Assembly: GCA_964588395.1 (NCBI GenBank)
Contig: CAZPPF010000001.1
Coordinates: forward strand, 6,656-70,329
DNA: 63,674 nt
Reading direction: 5' to 3'
From: an uncultured Candidatus Saccharibacteria bacterium
GTDB lineage: Bacteria; Patescibacteriota; Saccharimonadia; Saccharimonadales; CAZPPF01
Shown here: one piece after another, positions 3,467 to 52,161 of the stretch
Numbering within the stretch: position 1 is the stretch's first letter
Layout of the letters: every line of letters starts with the position of its first letter
Made by a program: the position numbers and the translations under genes
Notes under the pieces: model-generated
Told to the model about the DNA's origin: nothing
The model's input: the letters and a program-made list of their open reading frames with translations, nothing else
Databases searched by the model: none

Positions 3467-4537
3467 ATGGGGATTTTAAAATCAACACTCTTTGGACTGG
3501 GCGGCATAGCGCTACTATTTGCAGCCTCACCATCTAGCTCAACGTACCAACTTCAATCTTATGGTATTGGGTCCGGAGGCAGTTCAGACAGTAGCTCAGC
3601 TACCTATAGGTCAACTACCATTAGTGGAGAACAGGGTTCAGCCTCAACTACCAGCACAACCTACAAAGCTGGCACCGGCATAATTCCAACTCAGCAAGCA
3701 AATGTTCCAGCCGCTCCTGCCGTCACAAATCCTTCAAATTACTACAATAAATTGCACATAGTCATTAACAATGGTGGTAACCCCAGTGACGCAACCTTTG
3801 CCATTGCAATTAGTCCCGATGGGTTTAGTCCAACCACAAATTATGTAAAAAGTGACCACACAGTCGGTGCGACTCTTATTAGTACGGACTGGCAAACCTA
3901 TACGACATGGGGGGGTAGCAGTGGTTTTGATGTCATAGGGTTGCTACCAAACACCACCTACACTGTCAAAGTTAAAGCCGAACACGGAGACTTTACTGAG
4001 TCAGGCTACAGTGCAGCTGCCAGTGCAAGCACCGTTGGTGCAAGTCTGACATTTGATATTGACGTTTCGGCAACCGATACAGACACTAGTCCACCGTATA
4101 CTGTTTCGTTTAACGCCCTAACGCCCAATAATGTAATAGATAGTAATCAAAAGGTTTGGATCGATCTTGATACCAATGGACAAAATGGTGGGGCAGTATT
4201 TGTGGTTTCAGCCAATGCGGGACTCCATAGTATTGCTGCAAGTAACACTATCAATTCTGCTACAGCCAATCTTGCAAGTGTAAACGAAGGGTATGGAGCA
4301 CAGAATTCCTCGGCAACACAGTCTTCTGGTGGACCTCTGACAGCCCAATCTCCATTTACTGGCTCATCACAAAACGTTGGCATTTTGGATACGATACTTA
4401 CCCGAGTGTATGCATCGTCTGGACCAATTGTGGCTGGTCGGGGCTCGTTACTGCTAAAAGCACGAGCAACTTCTACCACACCAGCCGCAATCGACTACTC
4501 GGATGTTTTAACATTAATTGCTTCTGCTAGCTTTTAA
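3467..4537 (+). CDS. Secreted surface protein: FN3-like domain plus WxL-like C-terminal half
   Basis: Signal peptide present. FN3-like segment (PAAPAVTNPS..LPNTTYTVKVKAEHGDFTESGYS). The C-terminal half aligns with that of the next gene and ends in TPAAIDYSDVLTLIASASF-stop. Confidence 0.6.
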   Translation: MGILKSTLFGLGGIALLFAASPSSSTYQLQSYGIGSGGSSDSSSATYRSTTISGEQGSASTTSTTYKAGTGIIPTQQANVPAAPAVTNPSNYYNKLHIVINNGGNPSDATFAIAISPDGFSPTTNYVKSDHTVGATLISTDWQTYTTWGGSSGFDVIGLLPNTTYTVKVKAEHGDFTESGYSAAASASTVGASLTFDIDVSATDTDTSPPYTVSFNALTPNNVIDSNQKVWIDLDTNGQNGGAVFVVSANAGLHSIAASNTINSATANLASVNEGYGAQNSSATQSSGGPLTAQSPFTGSSQNVGILDTILTRVYASSGPIVAGRGSLLLKARATSTTPAAIDYSDVLTLIASASF

Positions 4538-4564
4538 CAGCTTGTGGATAAACACGGAAAAGGT

Positions 4565-4593
4565 TTGACACCCGCGCGAGTAAAACGTAAGCT
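4565..4593 (+). promoter_or_regulatory. Sigma70-like promoter: TTGACA, 17 nt, TAAGCT
   Basis: TTGACA at 4565-4570, a 17-nt spacer, then TAAGCT at 4588-4593. It lies 22 nt upstream of the 4615 ATG. Confidence 0.5.
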
Positions 4594-4614
4594 TTACCTA
4601 AGAACTTCAATTTT

Positions 4615-5661
4615 ATGAAAGAAAGAACACAAATTATGCAAACATTAAATAGGCCGCTGTATTTTATTGCAGCGTTTTTATTGGTGATAGCCGCAATTTT
4701 CGGAATTTTGGCATCAAGAGCTAATGCTGCAACATTAACGAACTCATACATCCGTCTGGACCGCATGAAAGCGGGGCAAACCACTTCTTTCAGACTGGTA
4801 TTTAAGACAGTTGGTGCTGGTGCTACAACGGTAGCAGTTAACTTCAATGGAGCTGACTCAACAACTTGGACAGGCTCATCTGGTGTAGTTAATGCCACTC
4901 AAACGGCTGTCGGTGCCGCTGGATGTGATGCCAGTGCAACTTCATTGCCGGGTACACTGAGCGCTTCAGGCTCGGGTTCAACGGTGACAATTACCGGTGT
5001 GACTGCTCTTTCTGCTACAACAGCCTATTGCGTTGACTTAACTTCTACGACTGCAGTAACCGATGCAAGCGCAGGTGAATACCACCCAACTATAACTGTT
5101 GGTAGCGACTCAACCACCGTAGCAGTTCGCACAATTTCTGATGACCAGGTGACGGTTAATGCAACCGTACCACCATCTTTTAACTTCGTACTGGACGCAA
5201 ACAGTGCCAACTTCACCAGCAGTTTGGACACTTCCAACGTACGTAAAACTTCTGACCGAACAGTTACTATAACAACGAATGCAATCAATGGTTGGATAGC
5301 CTGGGCAAAAGACTTGAACACAGGGCTACTTTCTTCAACGGCTTCTCATACGATTGCTTCAACCACGCCTGGAACTGCCGCCACCTTAAGTAATGGTACC
5401 GAAGGTTATGTTGTCGGCGTCGAAGTTACTACTAACGCTTCAGGCGGTGGTAACCCTTCAATACCTCTTGCATATCAAGGTACTGCTGCTAATAATGCCG
5501 GTAGTGGTCTTGACTCTACCTATCGCATGATCGCAAGCTCTGCTGGCACAGCAAATGGTGATGTAATTACCTTCCGTGGGAAAGCTGCAATTGACGGAAA
5601 CACTCCTGCCGCAACTGATTACGCGGACACCTGGACTATCATTGGCGCTGGTTCGTTCTAA
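4615..5661 (+). CDS. Secreted WxL-like surface protein (candidate major subunit)
   Basis: Signal peptide with an ANA-A cleavage motif. The protein is Thr/Ser/Ala/Gly-rich and looks beta-rich. It contains NGWIAW and ends in TPAATDYADTWTIIGAGSF-stop (W-x-[LI] motifs). It has its own promoter and a strong terminator. An alternative start is at ATG 4636. Confidence 0.6.
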   Translation: MKERTQIMQTLNRPLYFIAAFLLVIAAIFGILASRANAATLTNSYIRLDRMKAGQTTSFRLVFKTVGAGATTVAVNFNGADSTTWTGSSGVVNATQTAVGAAGCDASATSLPGTLSASGSGSTVTITGVTALSATTAYCVDLTSTTAVTDASAGEYHPTITVGSDSTTVAVRTISDDQVTVNATVPPSFNFVLDANSANFTSSLDTSNVRKTSDRTVTITTNAINGWIAWAKDLNTGLLSSTASHTIASTTPGTAATLSNGTEGYVVGVEVTTNASGGGNPSIPLAYQGTAANNAGSGLDSTYRMIASSAGTANGDVITFRGKAAIDGNTPAATDYADTWTIIGAGSF

Positions 5662-5684
5662 CCAGTTTAAAAAGTAGCGATAAA

Positions 5685-5707
5685 GCCGGCCAAATGGCCG
5701 GTTTTTT
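5685..5707 (+). terminator. Rho-independent terminator
   Basis: GCCGGCC, loop AAAT, GGCCGGT: a 7-bp GC-rich stem with one G-U pair. It is followed by TTTTTT (5702-5707) and sits 24 nt after the stop codon. Confidence 0.8.
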
Positions 5708-5758
5708 ATTGATCTTTGGAAATGATAACAATGCCCCTGTTATACTAGATGGTAATAA

Positions 5759-6835
5759 ATGGGTATTGTTAGACCACTTCGACTTTGGGGAATTATCTGT
5801 GTGCTGGCTGTCAGCATTTTATTGTATGGACGAGGCCATGCCCAATCTGACACTGGCGCCCTGAACCTGACAACCTCACCACTGCCCATCAGCTTGACGG
5901 CTAAACCGGGCGAAACAATTACGACTGAACTACGCGTCAAGAACAGTGGCACTAAAACTGAAGTACTCAAAGTCGGTCTCATGAAGTTTAGTGCGGTTGG
6001 TGAAGAAGGTAAGCCCCAACTGGATGACCGTCAACCAGGCGATGACTACTTTGACTGGGTCAGCTTCTCCGAGAACCAGTTCGTTGCCCAACCGAATGAA
6101 TGGAAAAGTATCACGATGACCGTGGCGGTACCGAAGACCGCAGCACTTGGTTACTACTATGCCGTGACGTTTTCACGCGCCAACCCCGAGACTGCGATCG
6201 ACAAAAACGCCCAAGTTCGGGGTGGCACCGCTACGCTCGTATTGCTTGATGTCCTCTCGCCTAACGCCAAGCGTCAAGCCAAGCTTACCGACTTTCATAC
6301 CACCAGAAAGATCTACGAGTTCCTGCCCGTTACTTTCGTCATTAAGTTAGCTAACACCGGCAACATTCACTTAGCACCGTCGGGCACCATTTACATTAAA
6401 CGTGGTAAACAGCAGATCGATACCATTCCGGTTAACACTACCAAAGGCAATATTCTACCAAAGAGCAGCCGTGTCTTTACGGTCCAGTGGGATGATGGCT
6501 ATCCAGTCTACAAAACGAAAGAGGCAGGTGGTACCACAGTGCTCAAGAATGGCCAACCAGTTATGACGTTGCATTGGGATAACGGCAAGCTGGGCAAATT
6601 ACGTTTCGGTAAATACACCGCTAACTTACTGATGACGTACGATGATGGCACGCGCGATGTGCCGCTGGAAGCCAGCGTTAGCTTCTGGGTAGTGCCGTGG
6701 AGACTAATTATAGGCATTATCTTAGTTCCACTAATTCCGGCATTACTTGTGTACTTCATTATGAGACGACGATTTAAGAAAAAGCTTGCCAAACATACGG
6801 CACCTCAGACAAGTCAGAAGGTAAGTAAATCGTGA
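5759..6835 (+). CDS. DUF916/DUF3324-like cell-surface protein, C-terminal TM anchor (paralogue 1)
   Basis: Signal peptide (..GRGHA-QSD), a ~290-aa beta-rich ectodomain, a single C-terminal TM helix and an Arg/Lys tail. The architecture matches CscA-type proteins of WxL loci. Confidence 0.6.
   Translation: MGIVRPLRLWGIICVLAVSILLYGRGHAQSDTGALNLTTSPLPISLTAKPGETITTELRVKNSGTKTEVLKVGLMKFSAVGEEGKPQLDDRQPGDDYFDWVSFSENQFVAQPNEWKSITMTVAVPKTAALGYYYAVTFSRANPETAIDKNAQVRGGTATLVLLDVLSPNAKRQAKLTDFHTTRKIYEFLPVTFVIKLANTGNIHLAPSGTIYIKRGKQQIDTIPVNTTKGNILPKSSRVFTVQWDDGYPVYKTKEAGGTTVLKNGQPVMTLHWDNGKLGKLRFGKYTANLLMTYDDGTRDVPLEASVSFWVVPWRLIIGIILVPLIPALLVYFIMRRRFKKKLAKHTAPQTSQKVSKS
5837..6705 (+). repeat. Copy 1 of an 869-bp perfect direct repeat (offset 1061 bp)
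   Basis: Identity with 6898-7766 begins at CATGCCCAATCTGAC and ends at GTGCCGTGGAGACT. The flanking bases differ (c5836 vs t6897; a6706 vs g7767). The encoded ectodomains are 100% identical. Confidence 0.9.
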
Positions 6836-7881
6836 AACGAACTAGCCTACTATTTATAATCATTATTCTGGCTACGGTGTTTGTAGTCCCCTTTATTCAT
6901 GCCCAATCTGACACTGGCGCCCTGAACCTGACAACCTCACCACTGCCCATCAGCTTGACGGCTAAACCGGGCGAAACAATTACGACTGAACTACGCGTCA
7001 AGAACAGTGGCACTAAAACTGAAGTACTCAAAGTCGGTCTCATGAAGTTTAGTGCGGTTGGTGAAGAAGGTAAGCCCCAACTGGATGACCGTCAACCAGG
7101 CGATGACTACTTTGACTGGGTCAGCTTCTCCGAGAACCAGTTCGTTGCCCAACCGAATGAATGGAAAAGTATCACGATGACCGTGGCGGTACCGAAGACC
7201 GCAGCACTTGGTTACTACTATGCCGTGACGTTTTCACGCGCCAACCCCGAGACTGCGATCGACAAAAACGCCCAAGTTCGGGGTGGCACCGCTACGCTCG
7301 TATTGCTTGATGTCCTCTCGCCTAACGCCAAGCGTCAAGCCAAGCTTACCGACTTTCATACCACCAGAAAGATCTACGAGTTCCTGCCCGTTACTTTCGT
7401 CATTAAGTTAGCTAACACCGGCAACATTCACTTAGCACCGTCGGGCACCATTTACATTAAACGTGGTAAACAGCAGATCGATACCATTCCGGTTAACACT
7501 ACCAAAGGCAATATTCTACCAAAGAGCAGCCGTGTCTTTACGGTCCAGTGGGATGATGGCTATCCAGTCTACAAAACGAAAGAGGCAGGTGGTACCACAG
7601 TGCTCAAGAATGGCCAACCAGTTATGACGTTGCATTGGGATAACGGCAAGCTGGGCAAATTACGTTTCGGTAAATACACCGCTAACTTACTGATGACGTA
7701 CGATGATGGCACGCGCGATGTGCCGCTGGAAGCCAGCGTTAGCTTCTGGGTAGTGCCGTGGAGACTGTTAGCAGTATTTATCGGCATTCCAGCAGTACTG
7801 CTAGCAATAATAATTTATCTTGTGGTATCTAGACGAAAATATAAGAAACAGGCCAAACGAGCCGAAACGGCAAAAAAATGA
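6832..7881 (+). CDS. DUF916/DUF3324-like cell-surface protein, C-terminal TM anchor (paralogue 2)
   Basis: The GTG start overlaps the upstream stop (GTGA). It has a different signal peptide (..VVPFIHA-QSD), an identical ectodomain, and a different TM anchor and tail. Confidence 0.6.
   Translation: MKRTSLLFIIIILATVFVVPFIHAQSDTGALNLTTSPLPISLTAKPGETITTELRVKNSGTKTEVLKVGLMKFSAVGEEGKPQLDDRQPGDDYFDWVSFSENQFVAQPNEWKSITMTVAVPKTAALGYYYAVTFSRANPETAIDKNAQVRGGTATLVLLDVLSPNAKRQAKLTDFHTTRKIYEFLPVTFVIKLANTGNIHLAPSGTIYIKRGKQQIDTIPVNTTKGNILPKSSRVFTVQWDDGYPVYKTKEAGGTTVLKNGQPVMTLHWDNGKLGKLRFGKYTANLLMTYDDGTRDVPLEASVSFWVVPWRLLAVFIGIPAVLLAIIIYLVVSRRKYKKQAKRAETAKK
6898..7766 (+). repeat. Copy 2 of the 869-bp perfect direct repeat
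   Basis: See copy 1. The antisense ORFs 6508-6792 and 7569-7787 also translate identically across their shared part, which confirms nucleotide identity. Confidence 0.9.
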
Positions 7882-9047
7882 AACAGCTTATACCCACCAT
7901 GTTTAAGAAATTGCTCTTATTACTTTATCTAGTGCCTATCCTACTTTTATCGGTGGCGCAAGGTTATGCAGCCTCTTCAAAGGGGGGAATTACAATTACA
8001 CCTCCCTTTCAAGAAGTGTTGATACTGCCAAATCAAACCAGTGTGCCAGGTAGCTTCGCAGTTGCAAATAATAGTTCACAGCCATCTACTTTTTCTCTGT
8101 CGACAGTAGACATGGGAGCACTAGACGATACGGGCGGTGTAGTATTTTCTGGTCTGTCGGCAGACTATCAGCAAAAATATGGACTTGCCCATTGGCTCAA
8201 ACTTGATACCGATAAAATTACGATTCAGCCCAAAAGTTCAGCGGTGGTTGGCTTTTCGATCCAGAACAACAGCACACTGGGTCCTGGCGGACACTATGGA
8301 GCTATTATTGTTAAGTCAACCGACCAAAACTCAAATTCAAAAAATCAAGTTAATTTAGCACCACAAGCGGCGTCGCTTTTATTTGTTAGAAAAGTGGGCG
8401 GAGAAATCTATAACCTAAAGCTTGAACCACCAACTTCCAAGACCTATTTATGGAAGCTGCCCACCAGTGCAACAGTTCGATTACGAAATGACGGGAACAT
8501 TCATGTAGTACCACGTGGTATTGTTATGCTCAAAGATCACTCCGGCCGCGAAGTCAGTAGGGGTGTAATCAACCCTGAATCATCACTGATTTTGCCCGAG
8601 CATGTAAGAGACTTTTCTGTGGTGTTTATGCCGCATAAACGTTTGCTCTTACCAGGAACGTATACTATCTCAGTTTCATATCGTTTTGAGGGTAGTGACA
8701 AGTTTGTAACTCAAACGTATAGCATCCGTTTTCTGAATTTACCACTTATTGGTCTTGGGTTGATACTTTTGATTACTCTCATTTTACTCATCAAACGCTT
8801 TGGCATTCGGCTTAAACGGCGAATTACAAAAATTTCACACATGAGAATGGTGAAAAAAATGTTTAAAAATGGCAAAGCATACGATACGGGTAGACCAACC
8901 AAGCGCATTAATCGTAACCAATCTAAACCCTTCTTCTTTTGGCCTACACGTAAACGCAAGCGGATAGCCATCCGTGACGGCGATAAGGATACTCAAAAGC
9001 TATCAAAAACTATGGATATAAAAGCGCCCAAAAAGCGCTCAAAATGA
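7878..9047 (+). CDS. DUF916/DUF3324-like cell-surface protein, divergent third paralogue with a long basic tail
   Basis: ATGA overlap with the upstream gene. Signal peptide present. GGITITPPFQEVLILPNQTS..GGHYGAIIV and RLRNDGNIHVVPRG..PGTYTISVSY resemble the DUF916 and DUF3324 halves. It has a C-terminal TM helix and an ~85-aa Lys/Arg-rich tail. Confidence 0.6.
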   Translation: MKQLIPTMFKKLLLLLYLVPILLLSVAQGYAASSKGGITITPPFQEVLILPNQTSVPGSFAVANNSSQPSTFSLSTVDMGALDDTGGVVFSGLSADYQQKYGLAHWLKLDTDKITIQPKSSAVVGFSIQNNSTLGPGGHYGAIIVKSTDQNSNSKNQVNLAPQAASLLFVRKVGGEIYNLKLEPPTSKTYLWKLPTSATVRLRNDGNIHVVPRGIVMLKDHSGREVSRGVINPESSLILPEHVRDFSVVFMPHKRLLLPGTYTISVSYRFEGSDKFVTQTYSIRFLNLPLIGLGLILLITLILLIKRFGIRLKRRITKISHMRMVKKMFKNGKAYDTGRPTKRINRNQSKPFFFWPTRKRKRIAIRDGDKDTQKLSKTMDIKAPKKRSK

Positions 9048-9086
9048 CTCATTTTACCCCTTGTTGTAACCAATTTTAGCTGTTAA

Positions 9087-9106
9087 GCTTAATGTGTACA
9101 TTAAGC
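9087..9106. promoter_or_regulatory. 20-bp dyad GCTTAATGT-GT-ACATTAAGC overlapping the annotated start of the 899-aa gene
   Basis: The 9-bp arms are exact reverse complements. It overlaps a second perfect palindrome, TTAAGCTTAA (9083-9092). Confidence 0.4.
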
Positions 9107-11793
9107 GGTTTGCGAGGATTGAAATAAAGAGGGTAACACTACGCTCGCATTTGGTGCTTTGGTTATTGCTTTTCATGGCAATAACTAGTCTCTTTCTAAT
9201 GGTTCAAAAACCGGCAAAAACTTCTGCAACGATCAATAGGCAAATCAATTTTCAGGGCAAAATTGTCCTTAGCAGTAACAGCACGAATATTACCAACGGG
9301 ACTTACAACATGGAGTTCAAGATTTACTCTGGCGGTGATGGGGTAGTGGGAGGGGGCGATGAGACACTACTTTGGACTGAAGATCGTTTGATCGGTGGAA
9401 CTGGTGGAGTAACGATTACTGACGGGGTTTTTCAGATTAATCTCGGTGCTGTAACTAGCTTACCCGGAAGCGTTGACTTCAATAACAGTACACTTTGGCT
9501 TTCGATGCAGCTCGGAAATACATCGAGCTGTACTATCACTACTACCTTCCTATCAAATTGTAGTGGTGATGGGGAAATGAGCCCGATGGTGCGTTTTACG
9601 GCTGCACCGTACGCTTTCAATTCGGATTTATTAGACGGAATCGACAGTTCATCATTTGCACAACTTTCTGGAACCAACACCTGGAGTGGTACAAATACAT
9701 ACAATAGTCAGTCCACCTTTAACACAGATGTAGATTATGTTTTTAATGGTACAGAAAATATTTCGGTAACGAGTGACCTAGCGGGAAGCGTAGATGTGCT
9801 ATCGGTCATCGCTACCCCCTCGTCCACATCTGGTACGACCCAAGGCATACTTATCCAGCAAGCCAACTCTGCTAATACAAACGGCCTCGACAATGGGATT
9901 ACTATTAATAATGCCGACTCCGATCTACCAATAACAGCTGCCCTAAAAATTCAGAACAGTGGCGGTGGTGGATATACAACGATAATTGATAACCAAGGAA
10001 CACTTATCTCAAGCGCTGAACTTAATCTTCTTGACGGTCACGCCTCTGCACTTGTGGATACAGCGTATACAGGAACACTAGGAATTACGGGAACTGGTGT
10101 TCTAGACGCCGGTTCCATCGGAACAAGTTTTGGTGCAATTGATGTCGGTAGCGACTCTATTACTACTACAGGGACCATTGGTACAGCTGGTAGCACTACA
10201 TTTACTGGAGCAGGTGGCACTTTCTCCTCAACTATTAATGCAAATGGTGGCATTTCTTTAGGCGCCAACCAGAACATTACAACCACTGCAGGAACGGGCT
10301 CTATCATACTTAATTCCACCGTTTCGAACGCTTCGGACGATGCTATTACAATTAACACCTCATACACAGGTGGGGCAACTGATGCGCTTGCATACAATGC
10401 TATAAATATCCCGGGCTTTAGTCCTACAAATGCTTCTGGTACAGACTTTGTTAATGGGTTAAACATTGGCAATTTAACCGATCCTGGTGCATCTATTACG
10501 AGCACTGCCTTCAAACTTGGAACGGGTTGGGACGTGCTGTTTGGTGGATCAACTGCTGGAACGAGTATTTTCGACTTTACTAACTTTGATGTTACGAGTG
10601 CGGGTGCTGTTTCTTCGGTTGGAGTTAATAGTGGCACCGGCCTACTTCAGGGGACGGGGGGTCTAACTGTTACCGGTACGATAAACCTAAATGCTTCGGG
10701 ATCAGGCACCACAACCATTGGAAGTAACACTGCCGGAACAATATCATTTGTAACAAGTGGTGTTACAACTACCAATAATCAGAATGACATTATCATTGGT
10801 GGTGGTTATGCGAGTTCCGATACAACTTTATCTGGCCTAACGCTAGATTCATTCAGCACCTTTACCGAAGCGGCTAGCACTTGTACCGCAACTGTGAACG
10901 GCGGAACTATCTACTACAACAGTGCTTCTAACGCTGTACGCGGTTGTATCAATGGTCAATGGGAGGATATGGTATCAACAGCCTCTCTTGGTTTACAGCT
11001 TTTTGGTGTTGTACCCGACTCTGGTCCAGACCCAGGTAACTGGATTGGAATCAATGCAACACTTGCAAACAATGGACCCTGTAAGGTTTATATGGGTGGG
11101 ACCACTGCTAGTATCCGCTGGACGGGATGTACTGCATTTTCTGGTGGGCGAAAAATAATTGTTCCTGCTCAAACTTCAGATCAAGCTATTACAACTGGTG
11201 CTGGTGTTTGGGCTCATGTATGTCTAAATACTTCGGGTGCAGTTGCTATTACACAAAGCGCAACAGAAACCACATTATGGCCAACCTTCTCCGCCAGTGC
11301 ACCAATACTCTGCTTGGCAGATATTTCTACAACAAACACAGGTGGCGGTAAAATTTCTGAAATTTATGATACACGGACCTTTACAACTACGACCAAAGAG
11401 ATCGTTAACAACGTTACGAATAACCCAAGTGTTGGGTGGGCCGTGGCTCAGACCACAACTGCCGGACAGGTAACAAGAACTGCAGCTACTGCGGGATTAG
11501 CGCTTATCCGTGGTGTATTTGTCGCAGTAACGAACTCTGGTACCACTGCCAACAGCATGAATGCAATTATTGCTACTACAGGGCCTGCCTATATGAAAGC
11601 AACCGCTGGAACCGCTGGTCTATATGTTCAGACTATTGGAACTGCTGGCTACGTAACGGCAACAACGTTACCTGCATGTACTAGCGCTGCATATTGTGTG
11701 CCGGGTTTATCTTTATCGGCTTTTAGCAGTACCTGTGCAGCAAATGCAGATTCTTGTCGAGGTTCGATTGCCGTGAACTTAAACTTACGTTAG
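9094..11793 (+). CDS. Large (899 aa) Thr/Gly/Ser-rich surface protein / putative adhesin
   Basis: N-terminal TM/signal segment. The block QINFQGKIV..NGTYNMEFKIYSGGDG..LLWTE..VTITDGVFQINLG is typical of fibre/adhesin N-terminal domains. A long low-complexity T/G/S region and a Cys-containing C-terminal domain follow. The start codon is uncertain (GTG 9094). Confidence 0.6.
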   Translation: MYIKRFARIEIKRVTLRSHLVLWLLLFMAITSLFLMVQKPAKTSATINRQINFQGKIVLSSNSTNITNGTYNMEFKIYSGGDGVVGGGDETLLWTEDRLIGGTGGVTITDGVFQINLGAVTSLPGSVDFNNSTLWLSMQLGNTSSCTITTTFLSNCSGDGEMSPMVRFTAAPYAFNSDLLDGIDSSSFAQLSGTNTWSGTNTYNSQSTFNTDVDYVFNGTENISVTSDLAGSVDVLSVIATPSSTSGTTQGILIQQANSANTNGLDNGITINNADSDLPITAALKIQNSGGGGYTTIIDNQGTLISSAELNLLDGHASALVDTAYTGTLGITGTGVLDAGSIGTSFGAIDVGSDSITTTGTIGTAGSTTFTGAGGTFSSTINANGGISLGANQNITTTAGTGSIILNSTVSNASDDAITINTSYTGGATDALAYNAINIPGFSPTNASGTDFVNGLNIGNLTDPGASITSTAFKLGTGWDVLFGGSTAGTSIFDFTNFDVTSAGAVSSVGVNSGTGLLQGTGGLTVTGTINLNASGSGTTTIGSNTAGTISFVTSGVTTTNNQNDIIIGGGYASSDTTLSGLTLDSFSTFTEAASTCTATVNGGTIYYNSASNAVRGCINGQWEDMVSTASLGLQLFGVVPDSGPDPGNWIGINATLANNGPCKVYMGGTTASIRWTGCTAFSGGRKIIVPAQTSDQAITTGAGVWAHVCLNTSGAVAITQSATETTLWPTFSASAPILCLADISTTNTGGGKISEIYDTRTFTTTTKEIVNNVTNNPSVGWAVAQTTTAGQVTRTAATAGLALIRGVFVAVTNSGTTANSMNAIIATTGPAYMKATAGTAGLYVQTIGTAGYVTATTLPACTSAAYCVPGLSLSAFSSTCAANADSCRGSIAVNLNLR

Positions 11794-12318
11794 ATGAAGT
11801 TTTCAAACGAGAAGTCGGTACTGCGTAGCCGTCGAAGGATGCGAATAACGGTAATAGGCACAATCCTAATTATGTTGCTTGGACTCGGATTGGTGTGGCA
11901 ACTATGGCTAAAACCAAAACCCATGTTGCCAGCCGATATCCGCCAGCAATTAAACTTTGTCACTTATTTACCGAAAACAGGAAACTTAGTTAAATTAGAT
12001 AAGAGTACGATTAAATATGATAAACAAAGCGCTGTTCTAAGTATGGTAGCTACCTACCAAAACAATCAAGTGACTATAACCGAACAAGCCTATCCCGATG
12101 TACTGATCTACGACCGATTAATTGGAACTCTAAAACAATATGATGAAGTTCAAACGAAAACAGGGAAAGTCGCATTGACTCGGCCTGATGCAGCTGGAGG
12201 GTCGCAAGTTGCCGTAGTCAGTGCCGACAATAAAACACTTGTGTTCGTAAAAACTTCCAAAGATCTTACAAAAGATGAATGGTTACAATTTTTTAATACA
12301 CTCGACGCTACAGATTAA
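11794..12318 (+). CDS. Hypothetical N-terminally anchored extracytoplasmic protein (last gene of the surface locus)
   Basis: The ATG immediately follows the upstream TAG. It has a basic N-terminus, one TM helix (ITVIGTILIMLLGLGLVWQLW) and a ~130-aa domain. Confidence 0.5.
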   Translation: MKFSNEKSVLRSRRRMRITVIGTILIMLLGLGLVWQLWLKPKPMLPADIRQQLNFVTYLPKTGNLVKLDKSTIKYDKQSAVLSMVATYQNNQVTITEQAYPDVLIYDRLIGTLKQYDEVQTKTGKVALTRPDAAGGSQVAVVSADNKTLVFVKTSKDLTKDEWLQFFNTLDATD

Positions 12319-12319
12319 A

Positions 12320-13645
12320 CTAACGATAACTTTCTATTAAATCTATAACAAGCGAAGCTGTCCAAGAAAAATTATGGGCGCCGGCAGGTGTGCCATCAAT
12401 GGGCGAAAAGTACTCATATAAACCATTTTTCTCAACCACAGCAGTTGTGGATTGAGCTAGCTCCGCAGCCTCTTCGTCAAAGCCATAGCGTTTCAGACCC
12501 TCTATTATCAGCCAATTGGTATTGATCCACACCGGACCCTGCCAATAGCTATGAGATTTAAACCAACTAGAATTGAGCGGAACGCTCGGGACAGGATACG
12601 GAGCACCAAAAAGTCGCTTGTCCTTAAGTAGCTCTATCAACTGCTGTGCTCGCTCTTTGGATACGCTACCACTATAGAGAGGCAGCAGTGTGGCAATACT
12701 GGGTTCCTTGATAAGTTTATGCGTAATAAAATTACGCGAATAATACTGACCAGTGTAGCCATCCCAGAGCATTTCGAGTGCATCCTCGGTTTTATTTATC
12801 TTTTTCGTCAGTTCATCAGGCAATTCGTGGTGAATAGCCTTGGCGATATGCCTTAGGCAGTGGTTGGCACGTACAAGCATAGAGTTAAAACCAAGATCTT
12901 CGATGGCAAACAAGGAGTGGCTGAGTATCTTGTCTATGTCGTAGGCTTTGCGACGTAAACGGTGCTGTACGCTGTAAAGCGCCAAAGCCTCAAAGGTTGA
13001 CAGACGTTGATCTGCAGGAACGTAGCGTGTATCGCGCCTAAGGCGGTTAACCAGATACACAAGTGGTTTTTTGGTGGCTAATCTAATCCAAAAAGGCAAC
13101 TGATGTTGTTTGAGCTCGCTCATCCAGGGCGGTGTATTGTCTAACCCCGTCTCCCAGGGGTGTACGAGCAGTACTAGGCCTTCGTCATGCGGGTCGCGTT
13201 CTTTATAGAGCCACTGATGATACGCTAATATCGCTGGAAAGACCTGCTGATACCAGGTGCGCCGCTCTGCCGGCTTTAGTTTTTCACCAATTTTTATAAC
13301 CGCTTCGGCAATAATGGGAGGCTGCGTAATTCCGCTGGTAGCTACATCATCTGGAGCAAGTGGATTGAGCCAGCTGCGCCAAATATTACGATCTTGGCGA
13401 TGTTTATCACCACCAGCAAAGATCATGTTCGGCAACATGCCGTTAGCCCATTGACCTCTAAGCAGGCTCAAGATTTCTTTTTGGGCACGATCGATATCGT
13501 AATGCCTAAGCCCAATAGAAATAAAACAACTGTCCCACAGCCATTGGTGCGTATAAAGCCCTTCGGTCGGGATTGTATAGTCACCATGTTTATTTATTTC
13601 CAGAACTGCCTTGGCTTGTTCAAGCAGATCTGCCGGTTCTTCCAT
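12320..13645 (-). CDS. (alpha/alpha)6-barrel glycoside hydrolase, GH63-like (glucosyl-/mannosylglycerate hydrolase-like)
   Basis: HQWLWDSCF near the N-terminus and SYWQGPVWINTNWLIIEGLKRYG near the C-terminus are typical of the GH63/GH37-type clan. Confidence 0.65.
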   Translation of the reverse strand: MEEPADLLEQAKAVLEINKHGDYTIPTEGLYTHQWLWDSCFISIGLRHYDIDRAQKEILSLLRGQWANGMLPNMIFAGGDKHRQDRNIWRSWLNPLAPDDVATSGITQPPIIAEAVIKIGEKLKPAERRTWYQQVFPAILAYHQWLYKERDPHDEGLVLLVHPWETGLDNTPPWMSELKQHQLPFWIRLATKKPLVYLVNRLRRDTRYVPADQRLSTFEALALYSVQHRLRRKAYDIDKILSHSLFAIEDLGFNSMLVRANHCLRHIAKAIHHELPDELTKKINKTEDALEMLWDGYTGQYYSRNFITHKLIKEPSIATLLPLYSGSVSKERAQQLIELLKDKRLFGAPYPVPSVPLNSSWFKSHSYWQGPVWINTNWLIIEGLKRYGFDEEAAELAQSTTAVVEKNGLYEYFSPIDGTPAGAHNFSWTASLVIDLIESYR

Positions 13646-50485: not shown

Positions 50486-50547
50486 AGACGAACGTTTAAA
50501 ACCCTAAACACATAAAACCTTACTAGCCTAAATTGCTTATGATTCTA

Positions 50548-50553
50548 TATACT
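50548..50553 (+). promoter_or_regulatory. -10 box TATACT placed for a leaderless pilB mRNA
   Basis: The box ends at 50553 and the ATG begins at 50560, a 7-nt offset. Confidence 0.45.
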
Positions 50554-50559
50554 AGAGTT

Positions 50560-52161
50560 ATGAGTCAAGATGCTCGGTTGGACGAGGAGCAAGCTACTGC
50601 CAGACGTGCCCGTATTCTGAACATGAACTACGTCGATACGTCGCAAATGGCATCAAAACCTTTGTATAAGGAAGTGATGTCATTTGAAGAAATGACACGA
50701 CTAAGAGTTGTACCCTTGCAGGCAGATGACCATAACATCAATTTTGGAATTACAACCACTACATCTCAACAGACGATGACTAACATTCGCCAGCAGTATC
50801 AAGACCAGCGAATTAGCTATAATCTTATTTCAGACGCAGGTTTTCGCGAGTATATGCGCTTGTATAATCCACCGCGCCAAGTGGTGTATCAAGATATTGA
50901 ACTCACAACAGCCGGCACACAAGAATTAATTGAGCAAGTTTCTACTACTTTGGCACAAGTACGTGCTGACGATATGCTGGCGTACTTGGTTCAGCAAGCT
51001 CACAAACTGGCTGCATCGGATATTCATCTAGAAAACCAAAAGGATATGATTAGAATTCGTTTTCGAATTGATGGTGTGTTGCATGCGGTGGCTCATTTAG
51101 CTCCTGACAAGTACCGGATTCTTATTTCAGCTATCGCCAGTGCTGCCAACGTCTCAACTGCTGCTAATGATGCTCAGCAAGGTCACATTGCCCAGCATGT
51201 GCGTATGGCCGACAATGAAGAAGTAGACATAAACCTACGTGTAGAAACTGTACCTGCCATCAACGGCATAGACGTCGTAATGCGTTTATTTAATATGCGA
51301 CAAGATATGTATACACTTGATCGACTTGGACTATCTGCTAAGGAACGCGCGATTGTGGATGATATTATCAAAAAACCGACCGGGCTTGTTTTGGCGGTAG
51401 GGCCAACTGGATCGGGTAAGACCACGACATTGTATTCCATTCTGAACTCTTTAAATAGTGAAGAGCGCAAAATCATTACTATTGAAGATCCAGTGGAATA
51501 CCAGTTTGAAGGCATCACCCAAATATCAGTCACAAGCCAAAATAGCCAAGAAACCAATTTTGCCGAGAAATTACGTGCGGTTCTGCGACTTGATCCAGAT
51601 ATTGTGATGGTTGGAGAGATCCGTGATGGAGACACGGCCAAGACCTCATTGCAGGCTGCATTAACAGGGCATTTAGTGTTATCAACATTTCACGCCGGGT
51701 CGGCAGCAGCTGCGCTGGCTCGCTTGATTGACGTTATTAGTGAAAACCCACTATTTCTGTCTGCCATTCGGCTCATTATGGCCCAGCGTTTAGTTAGACG
51801 GTTAGAGGATACGACCAAACAAGTTTATCAACCCGATGAAGCAACCCGAGCAACGCTAAGGACCATTATTGATTCATTACCACCTGGCGTCGATAAGCCA
51901 GATATTAATACGATTCAGTTGTATAAGCCTGGCAAGTCAGCCGAGAATCCTTATGGCTACAAGGGACAGGTAGCCCTTCGTGAACAATTCTTAATGACCG
52001 ATAACATCCGACATTTATTACAAACAGATATACGGCTTTCGGCCCAAGATATTGAGAAAGCTGCTGTGCAGGGTGGTATGACGACAATGCTTCAAGATGG
52101 CATTCTCAAGGCCATCGCTGGTGAAACAACACTCGAAGAAATTTTCCGCGTCTTAGGCTAA
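50560..52161 (+). CDS. pilB: Type IV pilus / type II secretion assembly ATPase (PilB/GspE family)
   Basis: T2SSE N-domain, Walker A GPTGSGKTTT, Asp box, Walker B DPDIVMVGEIRD and His box. Confidence 0.9.
   Translation: MSQDARLDEEQATARRARILNMNYVDTSQMASKPLYKEVMSFEEMTRLRVVPLQADDHNINFGITTTTSQQTMTNIRQQYQDQRISYNLISDAGFREYMRLYNPPRQVVYQDIELTTAGTQELIEQVSTTLAQVRADDMLAYLVQQAHKLAASDIHLENQKDMIRIRFRIDGVLHAVAHLAPDKYRILISAIASAANVSTAANDAQQGHIAQHVRMADNEEVDINLRVETVPAINGIDVVMRLFNMRQDMYTLDRLGLSAKERAIVDDIIKKPTGLVLAVGPTGSGKTTTLYSILNSLNSEERKIITIEDPVEYQFEGITQISVTSQNSQETNFAEKLRAVLRLDPDIVMVGEIRDGDTAKTSLQAALTGHLVLSTFHAGSAAAALARLIDVISENPLFLSAIRLIMAQRLVRRLEDTTKQVYQPDEATRATLRTIIDSLPPGVDKPDINTIQLYKPGKSAENPYGYKGQVALREQFLMTDNIRHLLQTDIRLSAQDIEKAAVQGGMTTMLQDGILKAIAGETTLEEIFRVLG

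Follow-up and report, generated by a model that had tools for sequence, protein, structure and literature searches.

WxL/Csc gene clusters of Lactobacillales, Listeria and Bacillus encode WxL proteins (CscB and CscC), a WxLIP (CscA) and an LPXTG protein (CscD). A very divergent complex of this kind, or an analog of one, encoded by seven adjoining genes, had been proposed from the letters of the DNA stretch shown above, which belongs to an uncultured Candidatus Saccharibacteria bacterium (contig CAZPPF010000001.1). The stretch analyzed here is the whole 63.7-kb window, and the genes in question are labeled P0 to P7 in their order along the + strand. That proposal (the original prediction in what follows) stands in one part: by profile comparison, the membrane-anchored proteins P3, P4 and P5 are homologs of WxLIP/CscA (DUF916-DUF3324-transmembrane helix). 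It does not stand in two others, as P1 and P2 are not detectable as WxL proteins and P7 is not CscD-like. The locus is probably a divergent, usher-less pilus operon of the Pam type, assembled by donor-strand exchange.

The Pam system was described in a 2026 preprint in which two filaments of Candidatus Mycosynbacter amalyticus were solved (bioRxiv 10.64898/2026.03.03.709456). As reported there, Pam pilins combine a nine-strand β-sandwich N-terminal domain, a highly conserved linker that is donated as a strand, and a truncated immunoglobulin-like (Ig-like) C-terminal domain. PamA, PamB, PamE and PamT are pilins, PamT being the tip subunit; PamC and PamD are FimC/PapD-like chaperones with a C-terminal transmembrane (TM) helix; PamR is an RbmA-like anchor; and a tail-fiber-like protein is associated with the system (bioRxiv 10.64898/2026.03.03.709456). 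Comparison of the window with Pam proteins was by way of NCBIfam models and the descriptions in the preprint. In the literature searched, WxL clusters are not linked to chaperone-usher or Pam systems, and neither the WxL nor the Pam literature cites the other; the relationship in sequence described below, between WxLIP and Pam-type chaperone-like proteins, is new.

Gene content and conservation of the cluster

P1 to P7 are seven open reading frames (ORFs), all on the + strand and beginning and ending exactly where the original prediction had placed them. Overlapping or abutting junctions, part of the same prediction, are likewise present: GTGA at 6832-6835 joins P3 and P4, ATGA at 7878-7881 joins P4 and P5, and the P6 stop abuts the P7 start at 11793/11794. 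A further gene, P0 (2817-3437, +; 206 aa, N-anchored), lies upstream of the originally described region, and the cluster including P0 and P1-P7 measures 9.5 kb.

A scan with the P2 alignment, over one genome per GTDB species, found a P2 relative in 138 species genomes; 80 of these loci were kept and, together with one 1.07-Mb contig, make up a set of 81 Saccharimonadia loci, whose ORFs were assigned to P-families by phmmer. M. amalyticus is not among the 80 metagenome-assembled genome (MAG) loci that the scan returned. Most of the 81 loci repeat the order P0-P1-P2-(P3/P4, one or two copies)-P5-P6, the kind of conserved synteny that the original prediction had proposed to look for in relatives. 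Because the order recurs in most loci of related species, the locus is, on comparative grounds, a conserved operon rather than a chance adjacency. All named homologs belong to Saccharimonadales/Saccharibacteria, joined in the case of P1 and P5 by other groups of the candidate phyla radiation (CPR; Moranbacteria, Andersenbacteria). Some operon-bearing GTDB records (L004, L025, L029, L041, L043, L049, L063, L067 and L075) bear titles that call them MAGs of Burkholderiaceae, Pseudomonadales, Limnocylindria or Nevskiaceae; such titles on Saccharimonadia operon records are probably binning or labeling errors.

Secreted subunits and their relation to Pam pilins

P1 (3467-4537, +; 356 aa) and P2 (4615-5661, +; 348 aa) are secreted, acidic proteins with isoelectric points (pI) of 4.6 and 5.1; the former is a candidate tip or adaptor subunit, the latter a candidate major pilin. 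That their C-terminal halves align and end alike had been noticed from the sequence, and holds both for the two proteins (BLASTP E=7e-9) and for the families of their C-terminal domains (hhalign Prob 99.7%, E=6e-26, 153 columns). The terminal motif TPAA-x-DY-x-D-x-x-T-...-F is common to the two families, its D and Y being kept at 96-100% in 67 P1 and 89 P2 orthologs. In the window, the domain covers P1 residues 204-356 (4076-4534, +), ending in TPAAIDYSDVLTLIASASF, and P2 residues 193-348 (5191-5658, +), ending in TPAATDYADTWTIIGAGSF.

The connection of this domain to Pam pilins runs through more divergent, full-length P1 homologs collected by an exhaustive phmmer search with P1, 25 of which were scanned with NCBIfam and Pfam. 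The PamT model is matched by 12 of them and NF058581, “Pam pilus system pilin subunit” (CPR_Pam_pilin_C), by four. The strongest case is P0473, a near-full-length P1 homolog (E=4.5e-33, 38% identity) that matches NF058581 end to end (positions 6-148 of 148; E=3.2e-9, 37 bits) and also matches PamT (E=4e-11); the other three match NF058581 more weakly. Compared with the four NF058581-matching C-terminal domains, the P1 C-terminal family gives an hhalign Prob of 99.8% (E=5e-30) and the P2 C-terminal family one of 97.4% (E=9e-12). Since P0473 and three further homologs match NF058581, and hhalign joins the P1 and P2 families to the C-terminal domains of these four, these comparisons support placing the shared C-terminal domain in the Pam pilin C-domain superfamily, at the level of superfamily rather than family; the link is transitive, because NF058581 does not match P1 or P2 directly.

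The N-terminal part of P1 provides a separate tie. Residues 16-78 (3512-3700, +), comprising the end of the signal peptide and an N-terminal module common to PamT, match NCBIfam PamT NF058579 (E=2.1e-8, 33.9 bits) over model positions 21-83 of 241. The same N-terminal part of the model is matched by 27 of 45 P1-family members, with a best E of 1.5e-10, and conserved residues of the module include Y27, L29, G37, S44, Y47, G54 and Y66. NF058579 is an equivalog model with a curated cut-off of 240 bits. The middle domain of P1 is FN3-like, as the original prediction had said of one of the two secreted proteins: Pfam fn3 matches it weakly (E=0.022), and matches 15 of the 25 divergent homologs. Because of this FN3-like insert, P1 is best described from its sequence as sharing a module with PamT without being a PamT equivalog.

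A P1 unit also forms the C-terminal end of several larger proteins (P0365, P0389, P0397, P0406, P0407). In P0364, a metagenomic protein of 1131 aa, a P5-like ectodomain of WxLIP type and a TM segment are joined, across some 450 aa, to a whole P1 unit that forms the C-terminus; this architecture could be a true fusion or a gene-calling artifact, and it parallels the “large WxL” layout.

P2 as a candidate pilin

Homologs of P2 occur across Saccharimonadia at 55-86% identity. The AlphaFold2 (AF2) monomer model of P2 (predicted local distance difference test score, pLDDT, 89.2; predicted TM-score 0.57) consists of a signal helix, a β-sandwich N-terminal domain (residues 42-174) and a β-rich C-terminal domain (189-346), with almost no regular secondary structure at residues 175-188 between them. 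The inter-domain linker, residues 175-192 (5137-5190, +), is the most conserved part of the protein: in 89 P2 orthologs the mean frequency of the top residue is 0.69 for the linker, as compared with 0.53 in the N-terminal and 0.63 in the C-terminal domain. Within the linker, conserved positions alternate (D177, Q178, V181, A183, V185, F189), the pattern expected for a strand buried on one face and, according to the preprint, found likewise in the donated Pam linker. From model and conservation together, the linker is a candidate donor strand, and P2 looks like a major pilin. The NGWIAW and TWTI motifs pointed out in the original prediction are both present; the family keeps G226, W227 and W230 without exception, but W340 of TWTI in just 64%.

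A terminator-like hairpin (5682-5705, +) lies 21 nt past the P2 stop codon, with a 10-bp stem containing six G-C pairs, a following T-run, and a free energy of -15.4 kcal/mol. A hairpin and T-run at the same position, with differing stem sequences, are found in 17 of 72 related loci. It is a possible intra-operon attenuator and would be compatible with P2 being made in excess, as are major pilins. A promoter-like site occurs at 5717-5746, ahead of P3.

The anchored proteins: WxLIP homologs with a chaperone fold

P3 (5759-6835, +; 358 aa), its tandem paralog P4 (6832-7881, +; 349 aa) and P5 (7878-9047, +; 389 aa) each have a hydrophobic N-terminal signal segment, a β-rich ectodomain of WxLIP/PapD-like type, one C-terminal TM segment (TM-like residues 305-337 in P3) and a Lys/Arg tail, in agreement with the topology first described for them. 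All three are very basic (pI ~10; 9.9 for P3). The two-domain ectodomain is seen in P3 as in P5, the latter being a candidate chaperone.

Their resemblance to CscA, the central identification of the original prediction, is borne out by several comparisons. With genuine WxL and WxLIP references taken from annotated plasmid clusters of Enterococcus, Listeria, Lactococcus, Bacillus and others, hhalign aligns the P5 family with three genuine WxLIPs over both domains (Prob 97.4%, E=1e-11, 227 columns) and the P3/P4 family with WxLIPs at Prob 90.7% (E=1.2e-6); the P3/P4 and P5 families are themselves joined at Prob 99.95% (E=1.8e-37). The window P5 matches Pfam PF06030 (WxLIP_PGBD, DUF916) with E=0.0025 and 18.3 bits, under the gathering score of 27.3, and 26 of 53 P5-family members match it, the best with E=2.8e-7. 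DUF3324 is not matched with Pfam. The sole matches of the P5 family profile among PDB sequences are EfmWxLIP1 (9i25, 9i1y).

Two β-sandwich domains and a TM helix (residues 288-331) are seen in the AF2 model of P5 (pLDDT 82.8). The top PDB match of this model by Foldseek is 9i25_C, “WxLIP from Enterococcus faecium locus A bound to long WxL” (E=8e-11), followed by the pilus chaperones CfaA, FimC, PapD, Caf1M and CsuC (E=1e-10 to 1e-9). On this model, the fold of P3-P5 is also the pilus-chaperone fold; Pfam PapD models are absent among the matches of P3-P5 and the 53 P5-family members.

In WxL systems, a hairpin loop of the WxLIP is predicted to insert into WxL and complete its β-sandwich, the same principle as donor-strand complementation by chaperones (Hassan et al., PMC10599100). 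A conserved loop of P5 (residues 78-106; 8109-8195, +), disordered in the model, is a candidate complementing strand: residues 81-100 have pLDDT values of 50-59 between flanks above 90, and D78, L82, G86, G87, Y101, L103 and W106 vary little or not at all. In alignments this loop falls on the corresponding loop region of WxLIP, and from its position would be the equivalent of the inserting loop. The tail of P5 after the TM segment (residues 314-389, ~75 aa) is unusually long, Lys/Arg-rich and cytoplasmic, with low model confidence. P5 homologs vary widely in length, from about 300 to 470 aa in related loci.

Gene conversion between P3 and P4

The ectodomain-coding DNA of P3 is repeated exactly in P4: a block of 869 nt at 5837-6705 (+) is 100% identical to one at 6898-7766 (+). 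The flanks that code for the signal peptides and for the TM segments and tails are unrelated (23-37% nucleotide identity). Tandem P3/P4 pairs are found in 16 related loci. In five of these (L001, at 11057-13217, L011, L021, L026 and L031) the ectodomain-coding DNA is 98.7-100% identical over ~870-900 nt; the pair in L002 is a mosaic, with an exact tract of 363 nt within a region of 80% identity; and the other ten pairs are 63-75% identical. Genomes with near-identical pairs belong to separate species (P2 identity ~60%). An assembly artifact can be rejected as the cause of the identity, because five further assemblies, independent of this one and including a contig of 1.07 Mb, show the same pattern.

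We read the identity of the P3 and P4 ectodomains as the result of recurrent gene conversion. In the two loci whose boundaries were looked at, the window and L001, identity begins near the signal-peptide cleavage site and stops at the start of the TM segment; conversions running on into either the signal peptide or the anchor probably face counter-selection. The finding that recurrent gene conversion holds tandem chaperone-like ectodomains identical while signal peptides and anchors differ is new.

P6, P7, P0 and the rest of the window

P6 (9094-11793, +; 899 aa) is an acidic, fiber-like protein and a candidate adhesin. As described originally, it is rich in Thr, Gly and Ser (15.7, 12.7 and 10.6%, respectively), and it has an N-terminal anchor. 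Residues ~30-210 are conserved in all 42 loci with a P6 homolog; beyond ~210 the protein is variable in sequence and in length (381-1764 aa) among related loci, and the L001 ortholog carries CBM_4_9. P6 has no Pfam, PHROGs or PDB sequence match. A conserved base with a variable distal part would fit a host-binding fiber.

P7 (11794-12318, +; 174 aa) is N-anchored, again as first described, and a homolog is recognizable in just five related loci. P0, with one N-terminal TM-like segment (residues 22-44), has a homolog directly upstream of P1 in 29 related loci and is probably part of the operon. It has no family match in Pfam, NCBIfam or PHROGs, and P0 and P7 show no similarity to each other, nor does either have a detectable relative whose function is known. 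PHROGs gave nothing informative for any cluster member. A C-terminal LPXTG signal is absent from all eight cluster proteins, and the ORFs of the window contain no TLxTC sortase motif, consistent with the earlier remark that neither was visible.

The remainder of the window has a housekeeping character (aminoacyl-tRNA synthetase subunits, GatA, GatB, DnaE, UvrB, NusA, ClpC, pentose-phosphate enzymes); scans of the window found no Rfam family at gathering thresholds and no tRNA gene. An ORF at 50533-52161 (542 aa) was judged by eye to be a secretion ATPase of GspE/PilB type, with a Walker-A-like GPTGSGKT motif, and because of it the same contig appears to carry type IV pilus machinery, a separate filament system.

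A probable Pam-type pilus operon and its alternatives

Read from the homologies, domain architecture, conservation pattern and synteny set out above, polymerization by strand exchange might proceed as follows, with the roles of P1, P3/P4, P5, P6, P0 and P7 assigned provisionally. P1 and P2 would be exported via Sec, and their shared C-terminal Ig-like domain would be held by the anchored P3, P4 and P5, whose conserved flexible loop would complete the subunit fold. The linker of P2 would then displace the chaperone strand in the preceding subunit, allowing P2 to polymerize into a thin filament. P1, with its PamT-like N-terminus, FN3 insert and the same C-terminal domain, may be the tip or an adaptor subunit; P6 is a candidate for the host-binding fiber; and the hairpin past P2 may keep P2 in excess over the products of the downstream genes. 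An usher-less chaperone/donor-strand system of this kind is suited to a cell without an outer membrane.

The likenesses to the Pam system of M. amalyticus are several. Both systems are in Saccharimonadia, with no usher, outer membrane or sortase and with subunits expected to be Sec-exported. P2 shows the architecture of PamA and PamB (β-sandwich N-terminal domain, conserved linker, C-terminal domain); P5 has the two-domain PapD/FimC-like fold and C-terminal TM segment described for PamC and PamD, and P3 and P4 are homologous to it; the NCBIfam PamT and NF058581 models match P1 or its close homologs; and the large fiber-like P6 adjoins the cluster, as happens in pam neighborhoods, a likeness drawn by description. 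Among the differences, there are two subunit genes here and four in M. amalyticus, the FN3-like insert of P1 is not in the 241-position PamT model, and there are three anchored proteins here, two of them with identical ectodomains.

Other observations weigh against assigning the locus to a Pam-type pilus. Scores are far under the curated cut-offs, and the proteins are not equivalogs: P1 reaches 33.9 of the 240 bits set for PamT, in a match confined to residues 16-78; the bridging matches to NF058581 reach 37 bits against a cut-off of 55; and NF058581 has no direct match among P1, P2, 51 P2-family members and 45 P1-family members. The gene order is unlike that of M. amalyticus (PamC..B-R-D-E-A-T, as inferred from accession numbering), no ATP synthase genes were recognized among the large ORFs of the window, and P2 has one Cys pair where PamB has three. 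In Foldseek searches, the whole chain of P2 retrieves generic two-Ig adhesins at a TM-score of ~0.2, the pilin CfaB appearing at rank 50. Searches of PDB sequences with P1, P2 and their family profiles gave noise, mostly antibody light chains and FN3, and no pilin-like chain; the Pam structures 25PZ and 25QA are not among the matches. No filament has been seen for this organism. With scores under the cut-offs, other gene content and order, an FN3 insert in P1 and no ATP-synthase neighborhood, the locus does not qualify as an equivalog of the operon in M. amalyticus.

Chaperone-usher pili (Pap, Fim, CFA/I, Caf1, Csu) share with the locus the fold of P5 and, if the proposed mechanism is right, donor-strand complementation followed by exchange. 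They differ in that the locus has no usher-like ORF and the cell no outer membrane; the chaperone-like proteins are membrane-anchored; the subunits have two domains, with the candidate donor strand between them instead of at the N-terminus; and the resemblance of P3-P5 is at the level of fold only, there being no Pfam PapD_N or PapD_C match.

A fairly unlikely alternative to the Pam-type pilus is the one closest to the original prediction: a WxL/Csc-type complex in which P1 and P2 are divergent WxL-like proteins held non-covalently by P3-P5, without polymerizing, and serving in adhesion or polysaccharide handling. The WxLIP homology of P3-P5 is real at sequence level and extends to the topology of signal peptide, two Ig-like domains, C-terminal TM segment and basic tail; the top structural match of P5 is a WxLIP bound to WxL; and the high pI of P3-P5 is like that of L. 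plantarum CscA (PMC10599100). The gene order is also similar to that of real clusters, in which subunit genes are followed by WxLIP-type genes and a very large surface protein is often encoded as well. In L084, a genuine WxL cluster of Enterococcus gilvus (pCR1A, 5010-11851), genes for a small WxL protein, a WxLIP, a 115-aa protein and a 1530-aa WxL protein have an order resembling the layout of subunit, anchored protein and giant protein in the window. P1-like units at the ends of much larger proteins would mirror “small” and “large” WxL proteins. When hhalign is run greedily on the P2 C-terminal domain and WxL, the two align collinearly and both the GW motif and the C-terminal Y-x-T-T strand fall in register, which gives a lead but is no test. 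The secreted partners, however, are not recognizable as WxL domains: Pfam WxL has no match in the window proteins, 51 P2-family members or 25 divergent P1 homologs; when the C-terminal families of P1 and P2 are compared by hhalign with genuine WxL domains, first 7 and later 16 of them, the result is non-significant (P=0.09-0.45); and of the dual W-x-L signature, the second W is poorly kept. The same domain joins the Pam pilin C-domain model significantly. Nor is a counterpart of CscD, a small LPXTG protein, found among the eight proteins, P7 being N-anchored and without a sorting signal, or a sortase motif in the window. The host group differs as well (Patescibacteria here, Bacillota for WxL clusters), several WxLIP-type genes are present per cluster here, and WxL proteins are regarded as peptidoglycan-bound, not polymerizing. 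Lacking both WxL domains and a CscD, the locus falls outside the definition of a WxL cluster, yet by its profile matches it has the WxLIP family in common with one. This alternative and the Pam-type pilus would merge if WxL and Pam pilin C-domains share a fold.

It is more improbable still that the products form an envelope scaffold or S-layer-like coat, with an abundant, acidic, Thr/Ala-rich P2 making a two-dimensional layer tethered by the anchored Ig-domain proteins, and P6 as a fiber. Such a coat would be in keeping with the high conservation of P2 and the hairpin that follows its gene, which is compatible with high expression, with acidic P1 and P2 facing basic anchored partners, and with monomer models that show complete-looking β-domains at high confidence. 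Against this, Pfam, NCBIfam and PDB sequence searches found no similarity to known S-layer families, the peak of conservation in the P2 inter-domain linker fits strand exchange better than lattice contacts, and the links to PamT and Pam_pilin_C, together with PapD-like partners, point to a filament system. That the genes are unrelated secreted and membrane proteins, neighbors by chance, is extremely unlikely. It is true that P0, P2, P6 and P7 have no direct match to curated Pam or WxL-cluster models and that no member reaches a curated family threshold; but most of the 81 loci, which represent different species, keep the gene order, coding junctions overlap, P1 and P2 share a domain, and P3, P4 and P5 share a family. 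The original prediction would have given way to such unrelated neighbors had similarity to WxL, DUF916 and DUF3324 and synteny both been lacking; the anchored proteins match WxLIP, and synteny is kept.

The WxLIP homology hints at a shared origin of the Pam-type and WxL systems. A bolder version, toward which we lean less than away, is that Pam pili and the WxL/Csc systems of Firmicutes are two branches of one ancient, usher-less donor-strand system for surface assembly in single-membrane bacteria. WxLIP/CscA would then be a membrane-anchored, PapD-like chaperone or assembly platform instead of an adaptor between peptidoglycan and host, WxL domains might be acceptor domains equivalent to Pam pilin C-domains, and WxL proteins might be assembled by strand exchange. 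In the same reading, several Saccharimonadia lineages would actively hold the ectodomains of two chaperone-like genes identical through gene conversion and at the same time preserve different signal peptides and membrane anchors, which would imply that the anchors have distinct functions.

Implications

The kind of system to which we assign the locus is known, having recently been described as Pam; what is found here is a divergent variant with other gene content and order. For tandem chaperone-like genes to undergo gene conversion recurrently and within domain bounds is unusual as an evolutionary signature. The homology of the anchored proteins with WxLIP/CscA joins two separate literatures: WxL clusters are colonization and virulence factors of Enterococcus, Listeria and lactobacilli whose assembly logic is unsettled, and the reading of WxLIP as a pilus chaperone is directly testable. 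For Saccharibacteria, which live on the surface of host bacteria, the molecular identity of the thin, non-type-IV filaments was established only in 2026 and for a single species. The locus indicates a simpler and far more widespread operon of the same general kind across Saccharimonadia, with P1 homologs reaching other CPR classes.

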